From the NCBI GenBank assembly GCA_025054955.1, contig JANWZE010000031.1, forward strand, positions 38,567 to 102,566: DNA of 64,000 bases, written 5' to 3'. The position numbers and the translations under genes were made by a program. The notes beneath the pieces are model-generated. The model had not been told where the DNA came from. It made no database searches and saw only the letters and a program-made list of their open reading frames with translations. Within the stretch, counting starts at the first letter, position 1, and the number at the start of each line of letters is the position of its first letter. Source of the stretch: Blastocatellia bacterium (lineage in GTDB: Bacteria > Acidobacteriota > Blastocatellia > HR10 > J050). Positions 2,438 through 50,883 of the stretch are shown one piece after another.

Positions 2438-3196
2438 ATGACGGAACCGGCTGGCCCAGAATTTTATACCGGCGATTACTACCGCACGCGATGTGGCGGT
2501 CACGAGCTATTCGATTCATTCGATGGGCGTGAGCTTGAACCGATTCGCCGAAAAGCTATTGAACTAGCCCAACCGGGACCTGGGCAGCTCATCTTGGATG
2601 TCGGTTGTGGACGTGGCGAAATTGTCTTGGCCTGCGCACTACGGGGCGCGCGCGCTATCGGCATTGATTTCAGCCCGCATGCTATTGAGCTGACCCGACA
2701 TTTGCTGAACAAACTCCCGGCCGACGCCGCAGCGGCCGTTGTTCAGATGGATGCGGCTGATTTAGGATTTTGCTCCAATCAGTTCGATTCGATCCTGATG
2801 TTGGATTTCGTCGAACATGTCCCGCAAGATCGGCTGCGCCAGATCATTGCCCGTTGTCATGCCCTGTTGAAGCCGGGTGGGCGACTGATCATTCACACTG
2901 GACCGACGCAAGAATTCATTCGCTATGGACAGCACGCCAAGCGTCTGTTATACAAGCTGCTTGGGCGACCCGTTCCAGCCCTGATTACGTGGGAGGGCGA
3001 AGCGCGGCTGGCCGGTCATTGTAATTTGCATACCAAGCAGAGTCTTCGAGAAGCAATGGCAGTATTCGAGCAAAAATCGGTGCAATACCATTTTGCTATT
3101 GAGCAGGGATGGCTCAAGCGGTTGGTCCGAACAAGCGGCTTGACCCGTTATTTCGCTTTTCATTTGTGGGGCATTGGTGTTAAACGTTCATCATAA
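2438..3196 (+). CDS. class I SAM-dependent methyltransferase
   Basis: SAM-binding motif LDVGCGRGEIVLACALRGARAIGIDFS. It starts 4 nt after the upstream stop. Confidence 0.8.
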   Translation: MTEPAGPEFYTGDYYRTRCGGHELFDSFDGRELEPIRRKAIELAQPGPGQLILDVGCGRGEIVLACALRGARAIGIDFSPHAIELTRHLLNKLPADAAAAVVQMDAADLGFCSNQFDSILMLDFVEHVPQDRLRQIIARCHALLKPGGRLIIHTGPTQEFIRYGQHAKRLLYKLLGRPVPALITWEGEARLAGHCNLHTKQSLREAMAVFEQKSVQYHFAIEQGWLKRLVRTSGLTRYFAFHLWGIGVKRSS

Positions 3197-32767: not shown

Positions 32768-32875
32768 ATGAATAAGATCAAACAGCAACTCGGACAGATT
32801 GACCCCATCACCCTATTGCTGGCTTTGTTGTTGGCGCTGGGCACAGGCGCTTGCCCTATTGCGCTGGGTCGCTAA
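32768..32875 (+). CDS. small peptide 4 (35 aa, MNKIKQQLGQIDPITLLLALLLALGTGACPIALGR)
   Basis: RBS AAAAGGAGA. Paralog. Confidence 0.6.
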   Translation: MNKIKQQLGQIDPITLLLALLLALGTGACPIALGR

Positions 32876-32911
32876 TCACGACGCATCAGCCTGCAAATCA
32901 GGAGACGAAAC

Positions 32912-33013
32912 ATGAAAGCGATTACGCGACAGCTCGGACAAATAGATCCCGTTACCATTTTGATAGCCCTGTTGCTTGCACTAAGCGCGGGAACTTGTTC
33001 AATCGTACCCTGA
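32912..33013 (+). CDS. small peptide 5 (33 aa, MKAITRQLGQIDPVTILIALLLALSAGTCSIVP), most divergent copy
   Basis: RBS CAGGAGA. Paralog. Confidence 0.55.
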   Translation: MKAITRQLGQIDPVTILIALLLALSAGTCSIVP

Positions 33014-33036
33014 CCAGCTTTCAGGTCAACATCGGG

Positions 33037-33077
33037 ACCAAGCTGAGCATTTACCAAACCATCACGCTCAGCTTGGT
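33037..33077 (+). terminator. perfect 12-bp-stem hairpin (accaagctgagc-N17-gctcagcttggt) between the peptide array and the ECF sigma gene
   Basis: Seen directly. Followed by a weak T-rich stretch 'tcctgttat', so it may be a terminator or attenuator that allows read-through. Confidence 0.5.
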
Positions 33078-33108
33078 TCCTGTTATGGAGAGTTATGGAG
33101 GATCAGCT

Positions 33109-33708
33109 ATGGCTGCACAAATGGTTGCAAGATTGACGGATTTTCAGTTAGCTCGAGCTTCAGCCGCTGGGGATCATCGGGCTTTTGAAATGCTTTACTG
33201 CCAGCATCACCGACGGGTTTACAGTCTGTGCTTGAGGATGCTGAGGAACCACGAAGAGGCGGAGGATGTGACCCAAGAGGTTTTTCTCCAGGTCTATCGT
33301 AAGATCAATAGTTTTCAGGGCAATTCGGCTTTCACCACCTGGCTTCACCGATTGACAGTTAACATGGTGCTCATGTATTTACGGCGCAAACAGAAGGGGC
33401 ATAGGCAGGAAGAGACGTTGGAAGCAAACCAAATGGCCGATCCACTGGAGAATCGCAAACAGGTTGGGCATCCTGATTTTCCCATTGAGGCAGTTGATTT
33501 GCAGAACGCGATCAATGATCTACCAAATGGCTACCGCCAGGTCTTTATCCTGCATGATATCGAAGGATATGAGCACAATGAGATTAGTCAATTACTGGGC
33601 ATTAGCGTCGGAACGGCGAAATCTCAACTGCACAAAGCTCGGTTGAAACTGCGACAAGCGCTGCGAGCTACCCACCCGCAACAACTCGTGACGGCGACCG
33701 TTCAATAA
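33109..33708 (+). CDS. ECF-type (sigma-70 family) RNA polymerase sigma factor
   Basis: Region 2 (...DVTQEVFLQVYRKINSFQGNSAFTTWLHRLTVNMVLMYLRRK) and region 4 HTH (...NEISQLLGISVGTAKSQLHKARLKLR). Start set at MAAQMVARL with RBS GGAGGA, with 33085 as an alternative. No anti-sigma gene follows. Confidence 0.8.
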   Translation: MAAQMVARLTDFQLARASAAGDHRAFEMLYCQHHRRVYSLCLRMLRNHEEAEDVTQEVFLQVYRKINSFQGNSAFTTWLHRLTVNMVLMYLRRKQKGHRQEETLEANQMADPLENRKQVGHPDFPIEAVDLQNAINDLPNGYRQVFILHDIEGYEHNEISQLLGISVGTAKSQLHKARLKLRQALRATHPQQLVTATVQ

Positions 33709-33710
33709 CT

Positions 33711-35066
33711 TTATTCAGTGTCAGTTTCAATCGGTTCTTTCTGAGGGCTACTGCGCAAGCCATATTTTTCCAACCGGTACTGTAGCGTGCGAAACGAAAT
33801 GCCCAGCAGTTTAGCGGCCTGCGTGATGTTTCCATCCGTGCGCTGCATAGCTTGGACGATCAGCGAGCGTTCGACTTCGTCCAGGACCACGCCGTCGGGC
33901 GGCAACTTAAAGATCGCGGCGCTTCGCTCTTGTTGATGTTGGCGTAATTCCGGGGGCAAATCGTCCTGACCGATCTGGTCGCTTTCACACAGTAAGATGG
34001 CGCGCTCAATCACTGATTCAAGTTGACGCACATTGCCCGGCCAACCATAGTTCATGAGCGCCTCCATCGCCGAGCGTGTCAGGCCGCTGATCCGTCGGTG
34101 AGCGGCTCGGGCATGCTTAGCCAGAAACAGATTGACCAACACCGGGATGTCCTCACGACGTTCCCGCAACGGCGGCACGTCAATCGAAAGCACATTGATG
34201 CGATAGAATAAGTCCTCGCGAAACCGACCATCTTGCACCATTGCGTCTAAATCCCGATTGGTGGCCGTCAGGACGCGAACGTCAACTTTGACCGGTCGCG
34301 TGCCGCCGACGCGCATGATTTCTTTCTCTTGCAGCGCTCGCAGTAGCTTGGCTTGCATGCTTGTGTTGAGCTCAGCAATTTCGTCTAAGAACAGTGTCCC
34401 TTGATCGGCGACCTCAAACAGGCCTTTTTTCTGCGCGTGGGCGCCGGTGAAGCTGCCTTTTTCGTGGCCGAACAATTCGGACTCCATCAGGTTCTCATTG
34501 ATAGCCGCGCAGTTGACTGCCTGAAAAATCTGGTTTGACCGTTGACTAGCTTTGTGGATCGCGCGTGCGATGCGCTCTTTACCGACGCCAGACTCGCCGC
34601 GAATGAGCACCGTTGAAGATGAATTGGCCACTTTTAAGATCATTTTTTTGACGCGCTCCATGGCTGCTGAGGCGCTGACGATCTCTTCGTCAATCGCGTC
34701 CAATTGCTTAAGCGCCTCTTGGATCGTTTTCAGCAGTGTGTCACGCTCCAGTGGTTTTTCCAGGTAGTCATAGGCGCCTAGCTTAATAGCTTCCTTAGCC
34801 GAATCAATCGAGCCATGGGCTGTCATCATGATGACGCAGGTGGATGAGTCCTGCGTCAGAAGCTCCTTCAGAAGCTGCAAGCCATCCATGCCTGGCATTT
34901 TCAGATCGGTGAGCACTAAATCGAAATGCTCATGTGCGACAAGCTGCATAGCCTGATGGCCGCTTGCGGCTGTGCTGACCTGATGTCCCTCTTCAGCGAG
35001 GATCAGTTGCAGAATATCGCGTTGAAGCTTTTCATCATCTACAACCAAAATCTTTCTGCTACGCAT
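33711..35066 (-). CDS. sigma-54-dependent response regulator (NtrC family: REC + AAA+ + Fis HTH)
   Basis: Receiver DLVLTDLKMPGMDG, Walker A GESGVGKE, GAFTGA motif (GSFTGA) and C-terminal HTH. Confidence 0.9.
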   Translation of the reverse strand: MRSRKILVVDDEKLQRDILQLILAEEGHQVSTAASGHQAMQLVAHEHFDLVLTDLKMPGMDGLQLLKELLTQDSSTCVIMMTAHGSIDSAKEAIKLGAYDYLEKPLERDTLLKTIQEALKQLDAIDEEIVSASAAMERVKKMILKVANSSSTVLIRGESGVGKERIARAIHKASQRSNQIFQAVNCAAINENLMESELFGHEKGSFTGAHAQKKGLFEVADQGTLFLDEIAELNTSMQAKLLRALQEKEIMRVGGTRPVKVDVRVLTATNRDLDAMVQDGRFREDLFYRINVLSIDVPPLRERREDIPVLVNLFLAKHARAAHRRISGLTRSAMEALMNYGWPGNVRQLESVIERAILLCESDQIGQDDLPPELRQHQQERSAAIFKLPPDGVVLDEVERSLIVQAMQRTDGNITQAAKLLGISFRTLQYRLEKYGLRSSPQKEPIETDTE

Positions 35067-35086
35067 GAGGCCGTCTCCTTAGTAGT

Positions 35087-36589
35087 TCATCCGTGCTGTT
35101 GGTTGGCATTTGTGTCAGAGGCCGGCGTTGGGGTATGCAAGCGTGGTAGCGTGATCGTAAACGACGAGCCTTGATCAAGCTGGCTGTGAACGCTAATAGT
35201 CCCGCCGTGGTCTTGCACCAATTTTTTAGTCACAGCCAGCCCCAGGCCAATGCCGGTCTCCTTCGTTGAGTAGTACGGCTCAAAGATTTTGTCCAGTTGC
35301 TCAGGGGCAATGCCAACGCCTGTATCGCTCACCGTGATTTGCACATCCTGATCAGAGGAAGCCAGGGTGATCCTCAATTGACCGCCTGTCGGCATAGCTT
35401 GAATGGCGTTCATCACCAAATTGGAGAGACAAATCTTCAGTAACTGCTCATCTGCCTGAATCTCTGGCACATCACCGTTGCATTCAACGAGCAAATGAAT
35501 TTTCTGTTCTTTTGCTTGCAGTTGCAATGGGGAAACGACATCGTTGAGCAATTGGGACAGGTTAACCGATTGAGGTGACAGTTTTGTTGGTTTGCCATAA
35601 TTGAGGAAGTCAGTCACAAGTTGGTTTAATCGCGCTATCTGGCTTTTAATTGAATCCAGTAAATTGTCGAACATGGATTGATCGGCCTCGGCGCTTGGGC
35701 GGAAACGGCTGCGTACATGGTCAATGCTGAGGTTGATGAAGTTCAGCGGATTGCGGATTTCGTGAGCGATGCCGGACGCCAAGCGTCCGATGGCGGCTGC
35801 TTGTTCAACCTCGCGCAGACGTTCTTCAAGCTGCCGATTGCGCTTTAAGCCATGAACCATTTCATTGAACGTGGCTGCCAGGCTACCGATCTCGTCGCGA
35901 TGTCTGACTTGGAGTTGCACATCAAGGTCGCCTTGGGCCACGCGGCGTTCAGCTTTGAGCAAATCGTCAATCGGACGAGTGAATCGCCTCACTAACCAGA
36001 TTAACAGGCAGGCGGTCACGCTCATCATGCCGATCATCGCCCACAGCCGGTTACGCGAGTTTTGTGTCAACACGTTGGAAATCCCTTCCCACGACAGCAG
36101 CACATGGATTCGCTCTTGTTGGGTAGCATTACCATTGCCTGTAGTGATGGGGAAATTGTAATAACGGACTTCGCCGGGCGCTGTCTGTTGGGCTTGCTGG
36201 AAGAGTTCGTTGTAGCTGATCTGGTGCTCTGGATCGGGTAACGGACCGGCGCTGACCAGCTCTTTGCCGAAGACGGCCGGGTTGGTACTGTCCTTGATCA
36301 CGCGACGATGGTCGGTGATGAAGATAAGCAAGACGATTGGCCGAAATCGCGGTTGCATGGGATGTTGCTCAATGTATTCGGAGAGCCACAGTGGTGTGGG
36401 AATGGAGGCTAATGAAACCTGCACAGCCTCAGCTAACGCGCCGACGTGCTCGTCCACTTTATCGTGAATTTCTGCCTCAGCTTTCACGTTGAGCTGATAC
36501 AGCAAAAAGGTTGTTAATCCGACCATCGTCACCAGCAACAGCGTGACTTGCAGCATGAAGCTCATGTAGCGACCATCTTTCCTTTGCAT
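35087..36589 (-). CDS. sensor histidine kinase (membrane anchor, periplasmic-like domain, HAMP, HisKA, HATPase)
   Basis: H-box AAIGRLASGIAHEIRNPL and G-boxes DTGVGI / GLGLAV. Cognate partner of the adjacent response regulator. Confidence 0.85.
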   Translation of the reverse strand: MQRKDGRYMSFMLQVTLLLVTMVGLTTFLLYQLNVKAEAEIHDKVDEHVGALAEAVQVSLASIPTPLWLSEYIEQHPMQPRFRPIVLLIFITDHRRVIKDSTNPAVFGKELVSAGPLPDPEHQISYNELFQQAQQTAPGEVRYYNFPITTGNGNATQQERIHVLLSWEGISNVLTQNSRNRLWAMIGMMSVTACLLIWLVRRFTRPIDDLLKAERRVAQGDLDVQLQVRHRDEIGSLAATFNEMVHGLKRNRQLEERLREVEQAAAIGRLASGIAHEIRNPLNFINLSIDHVRSRFRPSAEADQSMFDNLLDSIKSQIARLNQLVTDFLNYGKPTKLSPQSVNLSQLLNDVVSPLQLQAKEQKIHLLVECNGDVPEIQADEQLLKICLSNLVMNAIQAMPTGGQLRITLASSDQDVQITVSDTGVGIAPEQLDKIFEPYYSTKETGIGLGLAVTKKLVQDHGGTISVHSQLDQGSSFTITLPRLHTPTPASDTNANQQHG

Positions 36590-36790: not shown

Positions 36791-38032
36791 ATGATGAACA
36801 GAAAGATACGTGCGCTGACATTAGGTTTGACATTTCTTGTCACATCTTTGGGGTGGCCCTCCAGCGGGCTCAGTTACGCCAGCTCTGCGGCTGTCCTCGG
36901 CCAACGCAAAGCGTATCGGAGCGGCGTCAAGGCTCGCAAAGCCTCCTTGCAATCGAAACGTAAGACGTCGCAAGCAAGACAGCGATCAGCCGGCACGCGC
37001 TGGCGTCGGGCACGGCGCCGGCGTGGCCCGACGATGGCTGAGATACTGGCGGCCAGAGCCCGTGCTCTGCGACTGCAATCGCAAATGGCTATCGCTCAAG
37101 ATGACGTGCGCGGTGAAGACCCTGAGGTACGTCAAGCTGTCCTCAATGCCCTTGGCGATCAGGCGGGAACGGTGGTGGTGATGGATGCGCAAACAGGCCG
37201 AGTTTATAGCATCGTCAACCAGGAGTGGGCGATTCGCCAAGGGTTCACTCCCTGCTCGACGATCAAACCTTTTGTGGCTCTTGCTGCCTTGAAGGAGAAT
37301 CTGATTCGGCCCACATTCCCTGCTGGTCAAGCCTCGCTGTCGTTGAGCTTGCTTGATGCCCTCTCACGTTCGGACAACATCTACTTTCAGCGAATCGGCG
37401 CGAGCCTCGGCGCTGAGCGCCTGCGGCGCTACGCAACCGACTTTGGACTGGGACAACTGACAGGCATCAATTTGCCTGGTGAGATTGCTGGCCGTATCCC
37501 TGACGGCCCTGTTGTAGGGACAGCATCAAGTCATGGCACCGGCTTTGCCGTCACGGCGATTCAGTTGGCCGTCTTCACGGCAGCTATCGCCAATTATGGA
37601 GCGGTGTACAGGCCTCAAGTGGTGATTGATGATATGCAAGCGCAGCCTGCTGGTGATCAGCATGGCGAAAGCCACGGCGATTTGGCGTCCGGGGGCCCGA
37701 CGGTTGCTTTCAAGCCGATTTTGCATCGCCATCTGAATATCAGTGAGGTCGAGCGCTTGAACCTGCTGGCTGGGATGACCGGCGCCGTCGAATTTGGTAC
37801 AGCCCGCCGGTCATACGACCCGACAATTCAGGTAGCTGGCAAGACCGGCAGTTGTACTGGCGACGCCGGCGTTCGTCTCGGCCTGTTCGCTTCGTTTGCG
37901 ACCGTCGAGCGACCGAGGCTCGTGGTGGTGGTCATAACGCAGGGAATCAATGAACGGGGTTCTTCAGCAGCGCAGATTGCTGGTCATATCTACCAGCAAC
38001 TTGCCGACCGATTCCAATTACGACATCCGTAA
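36791..38032 (+). CDS. penicillin-binding / beta-lactamase-fold transpeptidase-domain protein with Arg/Lys-rich N-terminal region
   Basis: All three active-site motifs present: STIK (SxxK), SDN (SxN) and KTGS (KTG). Signal peptide plus a low-complexity basic segment. Confidence 0.65.
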   Translation: MMNRKIRALTLGLTFLVTSLGWPSSGLSYASSAAVLGQRKAYRSGVKARKASLQSKRKTSQARQRSAGTRWRRARRRRGPTMAEILAARARALRLQSQMAIAQDDVRGEDPEVRQAVLNALGDQAGTVVVMDAQTGRVYSIVNQEWAIRQGFTPCSTIKPFVALAALKENLIRPTFPAGQASLSLSLLDALSRSDNIYFQRIGASLGAERLRRYATDFGLGQLTGINLPGEIAGRIPDGPVVGTASSHGTGFAVTAIQLAVFTAAIANYGAVYRPQVVIDDMQAQPAGDQHGESHGDLASGGPTVAFKPILHRHLNISEVERLNLLAGMTGAVEFGTARRSYDPTIQVAGKTGSCTGDAGVRLGLFASFATVERPRLVVVVITQGINERGSSAAQIAGHIYQQLADRFQLRHP

Positions 38033-39136
38033 TCATAGGTTGTTGCTAGCGCTGGCGGGCAGCGCGGCATGTCCTTGATAACAGCACGGACCCGGAGGAA
38101 TCCGTTTGCCATGCGGACAGTGCGTCGGGTGACCAAGGAAGGCGCATATACTATTGGTCATTTCCGGGCTTAAAATGTGCTCGAACACACAGGCTTCAGC
38201 TTCAGCCTGTTGATCCGGCATGCTGAGCGTGTTTGAGAAAAGCGTCTCAGCGAGCCGATGTCGTCGAATCAAGCTCCGAGCGCGTGCCTCGCCTTCCGAG
38301 GTGAGAAAGATGTCGTTGCCGTTGAGCGTGAACAACCGATTCATCCGCTCCGCATTGATATAGGCCTCACCGAACCGTCCGAGTGTTTTGATCACTGCAT
38401 CGCGTGTCAACTGACCGTCTTCTCTGAGCACCCAGAGTTGCTCCATGATTTCGTCAATGTTCTCCTCGACTTTTTCCGGCGTCAGATCAAAACCGATGAC
38501 GCGGCCATGATCCAGTTGAATCTGCCGATCCGCTTTCTGACCGATGCGGACATCGTGTGTGACCAGCACAATGGTATGGCCTTCGTGATGCAGTTCGCTC
38601 AACAGGTCCATGACAAGGCGTTCGTTCTCTTCATCAAGATTGCCCGTTGGCTCATCGGCCAGCAGCAAAGGCGGCTCATTGATCAGCGCCCGAGCGATGC
38701 ATACGCGCTGTTGTTCACCTCCGGAGAGCTCGCAAGGCCGATGGGTCAAGCGGTGGCCTAGGCCAACTCGCGCGAGCGCTTCGGCAGCTTCTTTCTCATC
38801 AACCATACTGTGGTAGTACTGAGCCAGCATGACGTTTTCCAGGGCTGTCAGATAAGGGATCAAGTGGAATTGTTGAAAAATCAGGCCGACATGTTCACGA
38901 CGGAATTCAGTCAATTGCGCGCCGGACAATTGCGTCACATCGTGGCCGGCAATCACCAGTCGTCCTTCGTCTGGTGTATCCAGGCAACCGAGCAAATTCA
39001 ACAGTGTCGTTTTACCTGAACCCGATGGCCCCATCACGGATACCCACTCGCCTTGCTCGATACGCATATCCACGTGATCAAGCGCGCGAACCGGGCCGTA
39101 GTCTTTGGTTAATTTTTCCGCCGTGATGAATGACAT
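38033..39136 (-). CDS. ABC transporter ATP-binding protein (LolD/MacB-type) fused to a C-terminal DtxR-like metalloregulator domain
   Basis: Walker [10 protein letters not shown], signature LSGGEQQR, Walker B LLLADEP. Residues ~225-367 align to the DtxR HTH plus metal-binding/dimerisation region (…[13 protein letters not shown]…[25 protein letters not shown]…) and end in a Cys-rich tail [13 protein letters not shown]. Confidence 0.75.
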
Positions 39137-39140
39137 AATT

Positions 39141-40283
39141 TCACTCTCCTTTCAACGCCGAGGCCGGCTCGATCGTGAGCGCCCGCTTGAGCGGCGCGTA
39201 TGCTGCCAGCCAACACACAATCAGAGCAAGCGCCAGTGTCAATGGAATCGTCTCTGGCCGAGGTGAGACGCCGGTCTGGAATAGACGCAGGCCAATGAGC
39301 CGTGACCCGATCACGCCGATAGCAAAGCCCGCCAACCCGCCAACCAACGCCAACACCGACGCCTCACTCAACAACAGTCCCAAAATCTGACGCGGTTGCG
39401 CGCCCAACGCTTTCATCAAACCAATTTCACGATGACGTTCCATCACAAGCGCCATCATCGTCGTCATCACGCACAACGCTGAAGTGATCAGGATGATAGC
39501 CGTCAGCACGAACATCACCCATTTGACTTTGCTCAGCACCTGAGCTTCGGATTGCGCGACTTGTCTGAGCGGACGCGCTTCAACGCCTGTAATCCGTTGT
39601 TCAATTTCTCGCGCTGTGGCTTGAACCTGTTGAAGGCCACCCATGACACTCAATGCCAAGAGTGAAATCTGAGCCTTCAGGCCGGTTGCGTGTTGGAGCG
39701 TCGAGAGGCTCATGAATACTTGCTCATCTTCGGATTCACCGGTCGTAACAATGCCCGTGATTCGTAGCAGGCCTTTCCAGCTCCCATCGCCGATGGCCAA
39801 CTGAATGCGATCGCCGACTTGCAATCCCAATCGCTGGGCCAGTTGCGAGCCAATCATGCCTGCATCAGTATTGTCATCGCGAGCCCATTCTCCTTGAACG
39901 TGCCAATATGGGCTGACTTGGCGAACGCTGTTGAATCGGACCCCAGCAACGATGACTGCCTCGTTGCTGGGGTCGGCCTGAATTGTCCCCGTTGCGTAAA
40001 GATAGGGCGCTGAACCAATCACCTTATCAGTGCCGCTGAGGCGTTCCACTTCCACCCACGACTCGCTCAAATGGCTTTCAGGGAACCGGGGGATCACAAC
40101 CAGGTTCGCTCCGTAGGTTCTGAGCTCTCGGTTCATTTTGCGCTCCACATCGAACGTCAAATTGAGCAGCGTCGCTGCCGCCGCCGTTCCCACCATGACA
40201 GCCAGTAAAGCCAGCGCCACTTTGACGCCCCGTCGCACCAGCGATTGTTTGAGCATCTGCCAAAAAAGTTGCTGCTGATTCAT
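39141..40283 (-). CDS. FtsX/MacB-family ABC transporter permease
   Basis: N-terminal TM, large periplasmic domain, C-terminal 3-TM FtsX domain (...GLMKALGAQPRQILGLLLSEA...). Start set at MNQQQLFWQ, 16 nt after the upstream gene's stop. Confidence 0.75.
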   Translation of the reverse strand: MNQQQLFWQMLKQSLVRRGVKVALALLAVMVGTAAAATLLNLTFDVERKMNRELRTYGANLVVIPRFPESHLSESWVEVERLSGTDKVIGSAPYLYATGTIQADPSNEAVIVAGVRFNSVRQVSPYWHVQGEWARDDNTDAGMIGSQLAQRLGLQVGDRIQLAIGDGSWKGLLRITGIVTTGESEDEQVFMSLSTLQHATGLKAQISLLALSVMGGLQQVQATAREIEQRITGVEARPLRQVAQSEAQVLSKVKWVMFVLTAIILITSALCVMTTMMALVMERHREIGLMKALGAQPRQILGLLLSEASVLALVGGLAGFAIGVIGSRLIGLRLFQTGVSPRPETIPLTLALALIVCWLAAYAPLKRALTIEPASALKGE

Positions 40284-40299
40284 ACGCCTTCGTGTATCG

Positions 40300-41577
40300 T
40301 CATGTATTGCGCAAAATTTCAACCGGACGGAAACCAAGCAATTGTCTTGCCGGCACAGCGCACCCAATCAGCGCAATGGCTACTGCCACGCCCAATGCCA
40401 GTGGTAATATGATCGGCTTAAGAGCGACGCTTGAACCGAAAACCACGCTGCCAACCAGCTTGGCTAGTATGATCCCTAAGCCGCAGCCCATGAACCCGCC
40501 GATCAATCCCATCAACGACGCCTCTGTAAGAAACAGAACAACCACCTGTGCGTTGGTCGAGCCAATGGCTTTCATCAATCCAATCTCGGTTCGTCGCTCC
40601 AGCACCGTTGTCATCATAGTGCTCATCACAGCCAGCGCCGATGCCACCAATGCCAGTGCAGCAACCAGTATCATCATGAGTTTCATTTTCTGCAGAATTC
40701 GAGCTTCGGATTCAACAACCCGCTGAATCGGTTTGACGTCAGCCATCGGGAACACCTCACGCAGATTGTGGGCAATCGAACTGACGAATGGCGTACACAT
40801 CCACCGCTCGAATTCTTCTGGCGGCAACCGGTGCGGGTCAGTCCCGAGGCGTTCATAGACTTTGCTTTCCGGTGTCGTGAGCGCGCTGACCAATACGCGC
40901 TCGATTTGTCCTTCACGCCGGGTGAGCTTCTGTACAGCAGCAAGCGTGGTGAAAATTTGATCGTCTTCCGCTCCGCCGGTTGTCAGGACACCGGTGACAT
41001 AAAACGAATCCTGCTGGTTGCCAACTTTGATCTCAAGCGTCTGGCCAGGCTGAATCTGTAATGCCTTGGCTACCGCTTGGCCAACCAGGGCCTGTTGAGG
41101 CGCGTTGGTTTCATCAACCCACTGACCCTCCACATGCCAAAGCGGATTGAGCGTCTTCATGCCGGTTTCCATGGCCCCGCCCTCGAAGCGAACCGGCTGA
41201 TGAAACCAAGTTCCGACCAATTTGACCGCCCGACCACGCACCGAGGCCCACTCGTCCAATATCGGAGCGAATGCCAAAATGTTGTGTCGCCAGAAGACCT
41301 CTTTGATTCTCGGCAGATGGCTTTCAGGCAATGCGCCTTCGGGTTTAAGCCGGCTCAAATCCTCGCCACCAATCTCTAACGGCAGAGCCGTCCCTTTGGG
41401 CACAATCAGCAAGTTGGCTCCAAACGCTTTCAGCTCACGATTGACCTTATCCTCCACATCCAGTGTGATGTTGAGTAGAACGACGATCACACTTGTGCCC
41501 AGCATCAGCGCCAACGTCGCAATCAATTTGCTACGTCGCTGTCGGCGGAACGATTGTGCGACCACACGAAAAAACAT
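40300..41577 (-). CDS. FtsX/MacB-family ABC transporter permease
   Basis: Same architecture (...GLMKAIGSTNAQVVVLFLTEA...). Paralog of the downstream permease. Confidence 0.75.
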   Translation of the reverse strand: MFFRVVAQSFRRQRRSKLIATLALMLGTSVIVVLLNITLDVEDKVNRELKAFGANLLIVPKGTALPLEIGGEDLSRLKPEGALPESHLPRIKEVFWRHNILAFAPILDEWASVRGRAVKLVGTWFHQPVRFEGGAMETGMKTLNPLWHVEGQWVDETNAPQQALVGQAVAKALQIQPGQTLEIKVGNQQDSFYVTGVLTTGGAEDDQIFTTLAAVQKLTRREGQIERVLVSALTTPESKVYERLGTDPHRLPPEEFERWMCTPFVSSIAHNLREVFPMADVKPIQRVVESEARILQKMKLMMILVAALALVASALAVMSTMMTTVLERRTEIGLMKAIGSTNAQVVVLFLTEASLMGLIGGFMGCGLGIILAKLVGSVVFGSSVALKPIILPLALGVAVAIALIGCAVPARQLLGFRPVEILRNT

Positions 41578-41605
41578 CAGGCGTACTCCTGATTTTTACT
41601 TCTCG

Positions 41606-43027
41606 TTAACGAGCGTACATCTCTGGGTTCTTCTCGAATGCCTTAGCGCATTCCGGCATTTTGCAAAAATAGTAAGTCCGCCCATTGTGCTGAACCTGCT
41701 TGCCCACATCAGCCATGCGCAGCTTCATCTGGCAAACAGGATCAAGAAGTTCGACCGGCTCGCTGTTGCCGAATCGTCCAACTTCCTTCATCACATCGCT
41801 GGCAGCGACCACTAACCAATCTCCATTAACGTGAGACGCCAGTGGAATGGGATTGCAGCCGCCGGTTTCGCCGATCGTCGGCGCATGAATATCTGCCGCG
41901 CAGTTGAGGCAGACGATCGCCCGGTCCTCCTGAACATATCCGTAAGCGCCGCAAATTTCGCAGGCGTCAAATGCCGTGCGGATTTTACCCTCGTCTGTCT
42001 TGAGCGCCAAAAAGCGAACCGTCGTCCCATTGACCGGCAAGCCGAAGCGATGAAGCTGGCCGTCATTGACCTCAGCGATAGGAATTTTGATCAGACCATT
42101 GTCGGCTTGCACGAGCTTCGGTGGACTAATCGTTCTCGAGCGCGTCGAGTAAGCATAATTGACTGTCAACACGGTGACGATCAAAACGCCAACCGTCGCC
42201 GTGATCAGTCGCCACCGCTTTTCCCGATTGAGCTGGGCCAATTGTTTGCGTGCTTCGGCCCCGTGAAGTTCAGCCGCCATGCTCAGGCGTTGTCGCGCTT
42301 GTTGACTGGGAACGAGTGTCATGATCAGTGGCAGCGCAATGATCGTCAAGATGAACAGCACATCGTGCTTGACAAGTGGTCCAATCAGGCTCATTTGGCG
42401 CGGCCCCAGAGGAATGACGCCGGCTTCCGCCAACTCGTGCAGACCACCGATTACAAGCTGCACGGCAAAGACCAGCAGCACAATACCTGTTACCTTGAAG
42501 AACCGGCCTAGATCAATGCGTACCGCTCCTTTGAATATGGCAATGCCCAGCGTCACGGCCAAACCAAGACCTATTATTCCGCCAAGCCAGCTAAGCAGCG
42601 CGTCGGTTGTCAAATTGACTGCGCTCAGAAATAGGATCGTCTCGATGCCTTCGCGAAAGATCATGACAAAAGTGAATCCAACAAGTCCCCACGAGTAGCC
42701 GGCAGCAGCTCCCTCGACAATTGTGCCGACGCGCTGCTCAATCTCTCCTTTTAATCTATGAGCCGTGCGCCACATCCAAATGATCATACTGCTGACAAAC
42801 ACAGCAGCCACCAGCATGGCAACGCCTTCAAATAACTCAGCGTTGAACTGAATGCGACTGAGACTCCACGCCCCGATGAGGCTAGCCAGCACAGCCAAGC
42901 TTAACCCCAAATAGACCGAGCGCGTTAAATCACTTCGCTCAATTTTGCGCAGGTAGGCCAGAATGATCCCAATAATGAGGGCGGCTTCAACGCCTTCACG
43001 CAACATGATGACGAGTGCTTGAAACAT
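41606..43027 (-). CDS. FTR1-family high-affinity iron permease fused to a Cys-rich periplasmic domain and a C-terminal YHS domain
   Basis: Two REXXE motifs (MLREGVEAAL, IFREGIETILF) in a 7-TM core. Then DACEICGAYGY...CLNCAADIH...GGCNP. Then the YHS-like DPVCQMKL...GRTYYFCKMPECAKAFEKNPEMY. Start set at MFQALVIML. Confidence 0.75.
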   Translation of the reverse strand: MFQALVIMLREGVEAALIIGIILAYLRKIERSDLTRSVYLGLSLAVLASLIGAWSLSRIQFNAELFEGVAMLVAAVFVSSMIIWMWRTAHRLKGEIEQRVGTIVEGAAAGYSWGLVGFTFVMIFREGIETILFLSAVNLTTDALLSWLGGIIGLGLAVTLGIAIFKGAVRIDLGRFFKVTGIVLLVFAVQLVIGGLHELAEAGVIPLGPRQMSLIGPLVKHDVLFILTIIALPLIMTLVPSQQARQRLSMAAELHGAEARKQLAQLNREKRWRLITATVGVLIVTVLTVNYAYSTRSRTISPPKLVQADNGLIKIPIAEVNDGQLHRFGLPVNGTTVRFLALKTDEGKIRTAFDACEICGAYGYVQEDRAIVCLNCAADIHAPTIGETGGCNPIPLASHVNGDWLVVAASDVMKEVGRFGNSEPVELLDPVCQMKLRMADVGKQVQHNGRTYYFCKMPECAKAFEKNPEMYAR

Positions 43028-43102
43028 AGGAATGGATCCTAATTTGAAAATGGTTTTCAATTTCGAGCAGAAGAGATTAACGACAGAAGGGGAAAAAGTC
43101 AA

Positions 43103-43390
43103 CGAGCAAGGCCAGCGCGTTCAGCAACGTTTCATCCGCACGCATGTTTCGACGTGTATTAGTAGAGATGAGCAGGGCTAGATTGCGTTCAGTGACGTTT
43201 CATCCGCGCGCGTATCTGGACACGAGCTAGAGCGATTTGCGAATGAGTTTATCCTGGGGCGCGCACTTCCAGCATGCATGAGCCCGCAAGATGCGGGCGC
43301 TCCCCGGGTAAAGGCAAATGAAAATCGCTTTAGTGAGAAGGATGAGCGCGGCACAGGGTCGCGTTCAGTGACGTTTCATCCGCGCGCGTA
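43103..43390. repeat. repeat cluster: three copies of a ~35-bp unit derived from the GT2 gene 3' end (gcgttcag(t/c)(g/a)acgtttcatccgc(g/a)cgc(g/a)t(a/g)t) flanking a ~100-bp family-A structured element (43231-43333)
   Basis: Unit copies at about 43126, 43185 and 43357. The 43357 copy contains the gene's stop and last codons. Confidence 0.8.
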
Positions 43391-44867
43391 TCTCGACTGT
43401 CCGCAGCCAATCCTTATAGGCGTCATATTGATTCATCGTGGTTAAAGGCAAGGCTCGGTCTGTATTCTCTTCCCAGCGCCGGACCAAATAAAGCGATTCA
43501 TAGATGCGTCCGATTTCATACTCTCGACTGATGCGCAGCCCGACGGCATAATCTTCGCCATAGCTCGTATTGGGAAACTTGATCTGTCGTAGCACAGGCA
43601 CATAAAACGCGCGAGGCGCGCCCAGACCAAGAACCCGTAACGCATTATTGCGACCGTTCTCCTGCGTCCATTCCCGATGATCAATCAACCCGGGGGGGGT
43701 CTCTTCGAGGTTGAAGTTGACGGTCGTGTACGAGCCAATGACCATCGCATATCGAGGCGCGGCCGTTGGCGATTCCCAGAATTTGTCAACCATCGTTTGT
43801 AGGGTATGTGTGTCACGATACAAATCATCCGAATCAAGCTGGACAGCAATTAACCCGCACTCCGGTGAATCAATCGCTTCATTCCAGCAACCACCAATAC
43901 CGAGATCGGTTCGTTGAGGAATCTTGTGAATCAAATTCTTATGCTGTCGAGCCGAGTTTTTGACGATGTCTGTTGTGCCGTCAGTCGAGTGGTTATCCAC
44001 CACGATGACGTTATAAGCGAACGAGGTTTCCTGGCTCAGGGCGCTATTGATAGCATCGGCAATCGTTTTCTCTCGATTACGCACTGGAATGACGATGCTT
44101 GCCATCACGGGAAAAGCGGTTTCGGTCGCCGGCGGTGATTGAAAGACCGGCTCCAAAAACGCGCCGATACGACGTAGATGGGCAGTAGCAATTCGCTCCA
44201 TCTCCAGTTGGTAATCGCGGTTATTGGGGTCAACATAACGATGGACAGGCTCCAGATCGGCTTGCTCGTCAATGGCCACCGGGCAGCGCGTGTAGAGCGG
44301 TTCCGGAACGCGGACAATGGCTGAATCAATTGAGATTTTCAGCCGAAGATCGTACACGCCGCCCCAGCGGATCGTTGCTTCAATGCGCCCGTGCTGCCGT
44401 CGCGCCCGGTCTGCTGCTTGTTTTGAGATCAGCAACAGCGAACCAAAATCAAAGGTGTCGCGGATGCTGCCCAGTTGATAATCAATGGTCGGGTGTTCGG
44501 TCACCTGACCGTGATTCCGCTCTCTAAAATCGGCATATATGATTCCGGCCTGTGTATCATCCATCACGGCGAGCAACCGTTCGATGGCTTGCTGACTGAT
44601 GTCCACCTCGTGACCGGGTAAAAGAAGCAACAGATGCTCAGTCGTGACAGCATCGAGGGCGCGCTCGATGCAATCACCGGAGAACCAGGAATCGGCCTGA
44701 AGGAATTGCACGCCGTCAGGCGGCGCTTGTAGCGGTGGGGTTTCCCGATGTAACACCACGGTGCGCTCGATCAGCGGATTCTGCGTGAACAGTTCGAGCT
44801 GGCGAGCAAACCCAGAAGCGCCAGCGTGATCAGAGAAATCAGGTATGATAGCTGTCAACGGTTTCAT
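43365..44867 (-). CDS. glycosyltransferase family 2 protein (two-domain; GT2 catalytic domain in the C-terminal half)
   Basis: ...MASIVIPVRNREKTIADAINSALSQETSFAYNVIVVDNHSTDGT... with a DxD-like QLDSDD. Confidence 0.7.
   Translation of the reverse strand: MKPLTAIIPDFSDHAGASGFARQLELFTQNPLIERTVVLHRETPPLQAPPDGVQFLQADSWFSGDCIERALDAVTTEHLLLLLPGHEVDISQQAIERLLAVMDDTQAGIIYADFRERNHGQVTEHPTIDYQLGSIRDTFDFGSLLLISKQAADRARRQHGRIEATIRWGGVYDLRLKISIDSAIVRVPEPLYTRCPVAIDEQADLEPVHRYVDPNNRDYQLEMERIATAHLRRIGAFLEPVFQSPPATETAFPVMASIVIPVRNREKTIADAINSALSQETSFAYNVIVVDNHSTDGTTDIVKNSARQHKNLIHKIPQRTDLGIGGCWNEAIDSPECGLIAVQLDSDDLYRDTHTLQTMVDKFWESPTAAPRYAMVIGSYTTVNFNLEETPPGLIDHREWTQENGRNNALRVLGLGAPRAFYVPVLRQIKFPNTSYGEDYAVGLRISREYEIGRIYESLYLVRRWEENTDRALPLTTMNQYDAYKDWLRTVEIRARMKRH

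Positions 44868-49005: not shown

Positions 49006-50883
<1,878 letters not shown>

Follow-up and report, generated by a model that had tools for sequence, protein, structure and literature searches.

A widespread fusion of an ABC transporter ATPase to a DtxR-like module, a candidate metal sensor of FTR1/FtsX-type uptake operons

The 64,000-nucleotide stretch of DNA analysed here (hereafter the window; Blastocatellia bacterium, assembly GCA_025054955.1, contig JANWZE010000031.1, positions 38,567 to 102,566 of the forward strand) contains a gene whose product joins an ATP-binding cassette (ABC) ATPase to a C-terminal module homologous to the DtxR/IdeR family of metal-dependent regulators. The gene is the last of a tightly packed four-gene unit on the minus strand, and it is divided as follows:

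38033..39136, minus strand: whole fusion gene, FetD-like ABC ATPase with C-terminal DtxR-like module (one unbroken open reading frame, 367 residues plus stop)
38480..39136, minus strand: nucleotide-binding domain of the MacB/LolD/FtsE (type VII) kind, residues 1-219 (catalytic motifs intact, NCBIfam, Foldseek)
38417..38479, minus strand: connector and helix 1, residues 220-240 (mapped on IdeR; carries D228, E229, E232, W235 and the invariant E239)
38300..38416, minus strand: degenerate winged helix-turn-helix, residues 241-279 (helices 245-252 and 254-260 and wing 269-278 in the fold prediction)
38081..38299, minus strand: DtxR-type dimerisation and metal-binding domain, residues 280-352 (Pfam Fe_dep_repr_C, invariant columns)

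Both halves of the protein are recognised by Pfam (ABC_tran, residues 19-164, 2.2e-36; Fe_dep_repr_C, residues 279-347, 4.5e-26), and both domains are present in all of the 120 fusion homologues listed (54-94% identity; at least 120 share the two-domain architecture). When one genome per GTDB species was scanned for the motif RRHRLAExLF, at least 591 DtxR-type matches were obtained; among the best 80, 69 had an ATPase domain directly upstream and in the same frame, and the open reading frame was uninterrupted in 67 of these 69 species loci. A preliminary description of this DNA had called for a survey of relatives and for a check against a frameshift or an assembly error joining two genes; the 120 two-domain homologues and the agreement of frame in 69/69 species loci rule out such an artefact. 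The ABC-DtxR fusion is real and widespread and, judged by the genome scan, it is not rare. The hosts are mostly Acidobacteriota (Terriglobia, Bryobacterales, Acidoferrales), accompanied by metagenome-assembled genomes labelled Binatia, Methylomirabilota, Dormiibacterota, Limnocylindrales and Udaeobacter. In the databases these proteins are annotated just as 'ATP-binding cassette domain-containing protein' or 'putative ABC transport system ATP-binding protein', and literature searches on ABC-DtxR fusions, on DtxR-like domains attached to nucleotide-binding domains and on FeoA-DtxR fusions found no paper with an ABC-DtxR architecture, in agreement with the preliminary description, whose author was aware of none; the architecture is apparently undescribed. 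At its 3' end the fusion gene has no intergenic space: a convergent penicillin-binding transpeptidase gene (36791-38032, plus strand) ends on the base adjoining the ATPase stop codon (38032/38033), and a scan of 37800-43500 gave no terminator-like site.

The ATPase half (residues 1-219) is the canonical LolD/MacB-type domain that had been read from the sequence at first sight. Across 119 homologues the Walker A motif GPSGSGKTT (36-44), the Q-loop glutamine Q88, the signature LSGGEQQR (137-144), the Walker B residue D161 with the catalytic E162, and the H-loop histidine H194 are invariant. The best NCBIfam matches were LolD (score 212, cutoff 308), FtsE (209, cutoff 265) and MacB (208, cutoff 966), all three below the equivalog cutoffs, indicating that the ATPase belongs to this class and is none of these named proteins. 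The AlphaFold model of the full-length protein (predicted local distance difference test, pLDDT, 86.6; predicted template modelling score, pTM, 0.62) retrieved the ABC domain of MacB first in a Foldseek search of the PDB (target-normalised template modelling score, TM, 0.91), in a group formed by MacB, MJ0796, LolD, YbbA and FtsE (about 0.85-0.92). None of the 50 best PDB matches listed reaches past the ATPase domain, and no solved chain among them has both parts.

The C-terminal half is a DtxR/IdeR homologue, as first proposed. Fe_dep_repr_C (PF02742) scored 91 bits against a cutoff of 27, with model positions 1-69 of 70 covered, and a profile built from the C-terminal 146 residues of 22 fusion family members aligned to IdeR/DtxR chains with E-values of 2e-22 to 2e-19 over IdeR residues 8-133 (domains 1 and 2), with small deletions in the helix-turn-helix. 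The AlphaFold model of residues 222-367 (pLDDT 91, pTM 0.83) superposed on two-domain IdeR, DtxR and the manganese repressor DR2539 with TM scores of 0.72-0.78, at about 2 Å root-mean-square deviation over some 126 columns; examples of the DtxR family are Mycobacterium tuberculosis IdeR (1b1b/1fx7), Saccharopolyspora erythraea IdeR (7b1v) and Deinococcus radiodurans DR2539 (8pvt). The preliminary description had called the DtxR domain complete, and this was an overstatement in two respects. First, the Pfam model of the DNA-binding domain, Fe_dep_repress (PF01325), gave no match to the fusion protein at E<=1, for which reason the label of canonical repressor was not applied; of the three Pfam models named beforehand, ABC_tran and Fe_dep_repr_C were found and this one was not. 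The winged-helix region is nonetheless detectable by extension of the family profile (IdeR residues 8-65) and by the predicted fold, which superposes on IdeR domain 1. Second, the SH3/FeoA-like third domain of DtxR is missing: no FeoA or SH3 Pfam match was obtained in the fusion protein, which stops 15 residues past its CC motif, and the tail after this motif varies from 0 to 25 residues across the family.

The motifs picked out beforehand were located in the protein: the hallmark helix RRHRLAETL lies at residues 291-299, the Cys-rich end comprises C331, C340, C351 and C352, and the segment E-A-C-x-x-E-H-x-x-S-x-E is present at 314-325. This last segment had been assigned to the ancillary site; its C-x-x-E-H core corresponds to C102/E105/H106, which in established DtxR/IdeR nomenclature is the primary metal site. 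The family alignment maps the IdeR residues M10, E20, H79, E83, H98, C102, E105 and H106 to E229, E239, H293, E297, E312, C316, E319 and H320, respectively. Residue frequencies were obtained from 119 metagenomic and 68 genome-derived sequences (n=187): C316, E319, H320, E297 and E239 are 100% conserved in both sets, H293 is kept in 91-100%, position 229 has E or H in 183/187 sequences and D or N in the remaining 4, and most sequences have H, E or D at position 312. The ligands of the primary site (equivalents of IdeR M10, C102, E105 and H106) are thus kept, position 229 being capable of binding metal without being Met; at the ancillary site H293 and E297 are kept and position 312 is mostly H/E/D, the two ligands contributed by domain 3 being impossible since that domain is missing. 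Judged by these alignments, the metal ligands of DtxR domains 1 and 2 are under strict selection. The family has in addition an invariant cluster of four cysteines and two histidines without counterpart in IdeR (C331, H336, C340, H342, C351, C352), whose spacing is fixed in 119/119 sequences; where IdeR has SPFG, the fusion family has CPHG.

Conservation is distributed very unevenly along the protein. The mean pairwise identity of 68 fused proteins is 0.69 in the ATPase domain, 0.56 in helix 1, 0.34 in the helix-turn-helix and wing (the lowest value) and 0.74 in the dimerisation/metal domain (the highest). W235 of helix 1 lies 24 residues after G211 of the ATPase domain in 117/119 sequences, and in the full-length model the predicted helix 220-239 starts four residues past the last strand of the ATPase domain. 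The segment that contains the helix-turn-helix is 50-58 residues long, with insertions of 7-9 residues in the turn in some lineages; the positions of IdeR S37-G38 are deleted in the fusion family and the equivalents of P39 and Q43 vary. Taken together, the identities, the fixed connector and the variable helix-turn-helix indicate that the sensor half and its junction with the motor are fixed, while the would-be DNA-reading head drifts. The net charge of the helix-turn-helix segment, counted by hand, is about that of IdeR and does not discriminate. Two length variants were recorded among the loci collected from relatives (designated L001-L080) and from metagenome contigs (L082-L201): the fused genes of L005, L007, L040, L075 and L080 have the insertion of 7-9 residues in the presumed turn (e.g. 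GPAGQLPVIAAEPVS), with the palindrome upstream of their operons (described below) unchanged, and in L183 (329-952, minus strand) a fused homologue has a Cys-rich stretch, PGHPLNCPLADGGDCC, inserted into the connector that joins its ATPase domain to the DtxR-like module and is otherwise fixed in length.

The other three genes of the unit precede the fusion gene on the same strand:

41606..43102, minus strand: FTR1 iron permease with FtrD-like/DUF2318 Cys-rich and YHS domains, FetA-like (Pfam FTR1 2.8e-41, FtrD-like 3.6e-28, YHS 1.9e-8)
40300..41577, minus strand: FtsX/MacB-type permease, FetB-like (Pfam FtsX and MacB_PCD; kept in related loci)
39141..40367, minus strand: second FtsX/MacB-type permease, FetC-like (Pfam FtsX and MacB_PCD; kept in related loci)

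This gene set bears out the iron-uptake context that had been suspected. The FTR1-FtrD protein has two REXXE motifs (REGVE and REGIE), and CEIC-x13-CLNC-x14-C can be read from its translation; its gene probably starts at the ATG at 43027 and not at the TTG at 43102. Likewise, the listed TTG start of the 39141-40367 permease creates an overlap of 68 nucleotides with the neighbouring permease gene (40300-40367), and a non-overlapping start at the ATG near 40283 (MNQQQLF...) is the more likely one. Together with the ATPase domain, the two FtsX/MacB_PCD partners place the system in the MacB/LolCDE/FtsEX mechanotransmission class. All the fused loci that reach far enough upstream have the order FTR1-FtrD / FtsX / FtsX / ATPase-DtxR, which is kept across Acidobacteriota, Binatia, Methylomirabilota, Dormiibacterota, Chloroflexota and Verrucomicrobiota. 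In the window the flanking genes encode unrelated functions (family 2 glycosyltransferase, lipid A acyltransferase, penicillin-binding transpeptidase, histidine kinase, sigma-54 response regulator, extracytoplasmic function (ECF) sigma factor), indicating that the four-gene unit is self-contained.

Upstream of the operon lies a palindrome:

43042..43062, no strand assigned: palindromic operator-like site ATTTGAAAATGGTTTTCAATT, 21 base pairs, 15-35 nucleotides upstream of the ATG at 43027 (weight-matrix score 21.6)

Most related loci have its consensus, AGTTGCAAAT-C-ATTTGCAACT, 10-70 nucleotides ahead of the FTR1-FtrD gene; matches to at least 11 of the 14 consensus-arm positions occur in 39/57 promoters vs 13/810 random windows. 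The site is the sole one with a weight-matrix score of at least 10 in the 64-kilobase window, and it is usually the single strong site of each 14-kilobase related locus. The preliminary description had offered, beside metal gating of transport, a transporter doubling as a repressor, that is, a bifunctional, transporter-tethered autorepressor whose metal-loaded module would bind the palindrome and repress its own operon. This proposal draws on the position and solitude of the palindrome, on its DtxR/Fur-like arm-1-arm geometry, on the predicted winged-helix fold, which superposes on DNA-bound IdeR, and on the neighbourhood, there being no other regulator gene within about 7 kilobases on either side of the operon. 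An operator private to the operon and bound by the fusion was at first supported by the uniqueness of the site in the window and in most loci, and then weakened by its occurrence elsewhere. A scan of metagenome contigs for the exact palindrome gave at least 120 sites; among the 120 listed, 68 adjoin FTR1 homologues and 52 lie away from the operon, 38 of these 52 in intergenic positions. Genes flanking the sites outside the operon, among the matches listed, include Nramp/MntH in eight contigs, one ZnuA-type binding protein, a TonB-type outer-membrane barrel and a PepSY_TM protein, and in two loci (L109 and L161) the palindrome stands immediately upstream of a Fur-family gene. The presence of the palindrome before mntH, ZnuA-type and Fur-family genes points to the regulon of a trans-acting regulator, most simply a Fur/Mur-like one. 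Furthermore, the operator is nearly invariant and the recognition helix is not, the opposite of what is expected for a cognate pair; the drift, deletions and turn insertions of the helix-turn-helix and the silence of PF01325 point in the same direction, and the palindrome was not found in 13 loci with stand-alone relatives of the module. An autorepressor is thus disfavoured, and we consider it quite improbable.

Instead, the palindrome probably serves as the binding site of a Fur/Mur-like regulator that acts in Acidobacteriota and neighbouring groups, and the genes that it precedes are a candidate metal regulon. The classical IdeR/DtxR box, TTAGGTTAGCCTAACCTAA, was rejected as an identity for the site, the consensus AGTTGCAAATCATTTGCAACT being unlike it. 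A Mur box of 19 base pairs has been described for mntH and sitABCD by Rodionov et al. (PMC1698941), in a text that does not give the sequence. The region ahead of the operon also contains a unit of 37 nucleotides in three direct copies that are 81-100% identical (43117-43153, 43185-43221 and 43361-43397). The 3' end of the glycosyltransferase gene (43365-44867, minus strand) lies within the third copy, so that this gene end appears to have been copied twice into the intergenic stretch just ahead of the operon promoter; a sigma-54 promoter within the three repeats was considered and dropped, visual inspection giving no convincing match.

The relatives of the module outside the fusion show what company it keeps. 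A representative search (50% clusters), which gives no count of fused members because these collapse into few clusters, returned mostly stand-alone proteins of about 220 residues. The closest stand-alone relatives (Fe_dep_repr_C plus FeoA) are 43-50% identical to the module, have the same diverged N-terminal domain and share with the fusion the signature C-x4-HP-x2-CPHG-x7-CC. Their genes lie directly after a split feoB (a FeoB_N gene followed by a Gate/FeoB_C gene) in 9/12 loci, and a Fur-family gene is found just upstream of feoB in 6 of those 9 (stand-alone genes occur in L078, at 2447-3151, and in L011, L028, L029, L031, L032, L057, L062 and L072). The feoB neighbourhood and the nearby Fur gene indicate that the clade of this module associates with transporter engines, with a separate transcription factor at hand. 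In L078 an FTR1 gene is located downstream of the stand-alone gene. No characterisation of stand-alone Fe_dep_repr_C+FeoA proteins was found in the literature. In the opposite direction, an unfused ATPase of 225 residues, 62% identical to the ATPase domain of the window, occurs in the same operon with the same operator (L106, 3152-3787, and L117, 241-894, both minus strand), indicating that the DtxR-like domain is an accessory add-on. The unfused ATPase of this lineage is followed by a GBBH-like_N/DUF971-type gene; L001 has a gene of this type after its fused ATPase. The stand-alone relatives after feoB and the unfused lineage both fit an accessory, transporter-associated sensor.

From sequence and predicted structure, then, we propose that the DtxR-derived module senses cytoplasmic Fe2+/Mn2+ and gates the ATPase instead of acting on DNA, and we give this reading about an even chance (roughly 0.5). 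Of the two mechanisms in the preliminary description, the one that agrees best with the evidence is direct gating of the motor by metal, because the ligands are strictly selected, the connector is fixed (117/119) and the domain is an accessory. The fusion protein would serve as ATPase subunit in a FetABCD-like metal-uptake machine of four components, together with the FTR1-DUF2318-YHS permease and a heterodimer of FtsX/MacB-type permeases. We infer that the DtxR-type dimerisation domain joins two ATPase subunits beneath their nucleotide-binding domains. Rising cytoplasmic Fe2+ (or Mn2+) would fill the primary site, bridging helix 1 (E/H229) to domain 2 (C316, E319, H320), and metal may also bind at the H293/E297/E312 site. 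In DtxR and IdeR, metal at the primary site links helix 1 with domain 2 and thereby turns domain 1 relative to the dimer. Here helix 1 follows straight on from the ATPase domain through a connector of fixed length, so that a DtxR-like movement would re-position the two ATPase domains, in their spacing or their orientation. The most likely outcome, by analogy with the trans-inhibition of MetNI and ModBC, would be that they are held unable to close on ATP, giving feedback inhibition of uptake; the sign of this effect, should the ATPase respond at all, is a guess. Transcription of the operon would be left to the separate, trans-acting Fur/Mur-like regulator on the palindrome.

Several points weigh against this proposal. 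The identity of the metal is ambiguous: the REXXE motifs of FTR1 and the Cys at the C102 position (DtxR-like) point to iron, and the acidic/His residue at the M10 position (MntR-like) and the operator shared with mntH are compatible with manganese. The pTM of the full-length monomer is only 0.62, leaving the relative position of the domains undefined; the winged-helix fold has been retained, which makes binding to DNA conceivable; and the invariant extra Cys/His cluster is unaccounted for by gating. Moreover, MacB-type transporters perform periplasmic mechanical work rather than import. For Fet systems, neither the substrate of the ABC part nor its role has been explained (PMC6083913, PMC10783030).

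The cluster counts in favour of two other explanations. The module might serve for dimerisation only, perhaps with Zn or another structural metal permanently bound by the Cys/His cluster, and convey no signal of metal status. Dimerisation is the function of domain 2 in DtxR, and its equivalent is here the best-conserved region, the six additional invariant Cys/His residues with their fixed spacing resemble a structural metal site, and the related lineage with an unfused ATPase agrees with such a role; a pure clamp, however, needs no full set of DtxR regulatory ligands, including the inter-domain E/H at 229, and other type VII ATPases (LolD, FtsE, MacB) dimerise without a domain of this kind, making this explanation unlikely. 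Alternatively, the module might accept metal, through a chaperone-like hand-off of Fe2+ from the FTR1 channel, or use the Cys/His residues to bind an Fe-S cluster or to sense redox state. The cluster is absent from classical DtxR and IdeR, and its signature recurs in the stand-alone relatives encoded after feoB; some Feo systems include FeoC, a Cys-rich winged-helix protein, with which a loose comparison can be drawn. The Cys-rich DUF2318 and YHS domains of the partner protein suggest redox chemistry as well (PMC10783030). Yet the classical DtxR regulatory ligands are as invariant as the cluster itself, and we regard an acceptor or redox sensor as distinctly unlikely.

Bacterial metal homeostasis is described almost wholly at the level of transcription (Fur, DtxR, MntR, riboswitches); a covalent connection of sensor and motor would add a layer that stops uptake within seconds, ahead of the transcriptional response. 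A broader possibility, which we put forward tentatively and hold to be somewhat short of even odds, is that a whole clade of the DtxR family left transcription and became transporter-bound metal sensors, with one branch welded to the ATPase of a type VII ABC mechanotransmitter and the other coupled through FeoA to FeoB; in the ATPase branch the 'caliper' motion of DtxR would then position two ATPase domains instead of DNA-reading heads. Were this true, no earlier case would be known of an ABC motor gated directly and allosterically by a transition-metal ion, and a second, fast, post-translational layer of Fe/Mn homeostasis would run parallel to Fur. The fusion would also provide a handle on Fet/P19-type systems, whose ABC part is essential in Campylobacter yet mechanistically unexplained, since a member wired to a sensor names the signal of the motor, and the DtxR-like module offers a soluble, tractable domain for biochemistry. 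Its abundance in Acidobacteriota and other dominant soil phyla would give it a bearing on the acquisition of iron and manganese in soil.

Two features elsewhere in the window were noted in passing. Immediately beyond the convergent neighbour, at 32851-36589, are the genes of an ECF sigma factor, a sigma-54-dependent response regulator and a HAMP histidine kinase, for which no link with the iron operon was seen. At 49006-50883 (minus strand) a protein of 625 residues matches Peptidase_M2, the angiotensin-converting enzyme family and an uncommon one in bacteria, with an E-value of 5e-230 over the full model.

In comparison with known systems, the closest described one, by gene content, is Campylobacter fetABCD. 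FetA of Campylobacter jejuni has transmembrane helices, a DUF2318 domain with CxxC-x13-CxxC-x14/15-C and a YHS domain, FetB and FetC are permeases and FetD is the ATPase, within a cluster, fetMP-fetABCDEF (cFtr1-P19), that follows a Fur box (PMC6083913, PMC10783030); each of fetA-D is required for growth of C. jejuni under iron limitation (PMC10783030). The operon of the window has the same gene set and order (DUF2318/YHS membrane protein, two ABC permeases, ABC ATPase). In contrast with Fet, its DUF2318 protein has an N-terminal FTR1 permease domain; no P19/FetP, separate FetM or thioredoxins (FetE/F) are found near the operon, nor P19 or an adjacent thioredoxin in the annotated relative L001; and its ATPase has the DtxR-like extension, which neither Campylobacter paper mentions on FetD (PMC6083913, PMC10783030).

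With DtxR, IdeR and MntR the module shares homology over domains 1 and 2, with the equivalents of H79, E83, C102, E105 and H106 kept, and it has the two-domain format of MntR and DR2539. Unlike the members of that family it is not free-standing, and its DNA-binding domain has diverged too far to match PF01325 and has a variable recognition helix; it has E/H at the M10 position, no SH3-like domain 3, and the cluster of four Cys and two His. The stand-alone proteins linked to feoB differ from the fusion in having a FeoA/SH3 domain instead of an N-terminal ABC ATPase, and FeoB as partner, not FTR1/FtsX.

As regards the ATPase, MetN (with a C2/ACT-like domain), ModC and MalK (TOBE-type) and FbpC are ABC ATPases with C-terminal substrate-sensing regulatory domains. 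FbpC was compared as a further example (PMC2896483; structure 9j4r). As in these ATPases, the extra domain directly follows the nucleotide-binding domain and is expected to dimerise beneath it; with them it would share the logic of a cytoplasmic ligand that throttles the motor, a regulation that is here proposed only. The differences are that the fold is of the DtxR type, not TOBE or ACT, and that the motor belongs to a type VII MacB/FtsX mechanotransmitter, not to a type I importer. The sharing of a sensor fold between ModE and ModC parallels that between DtxR and the fusion ATPase, which would thus be a natural example of a transcription-factor sensor domain re-used as the regulator of an enzyme. 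What is known in kind is the ABC ATPase with a ligand-sensing C-terminal regulatory domain; what is apparently new is a DtxR-type module on a type VII motor.

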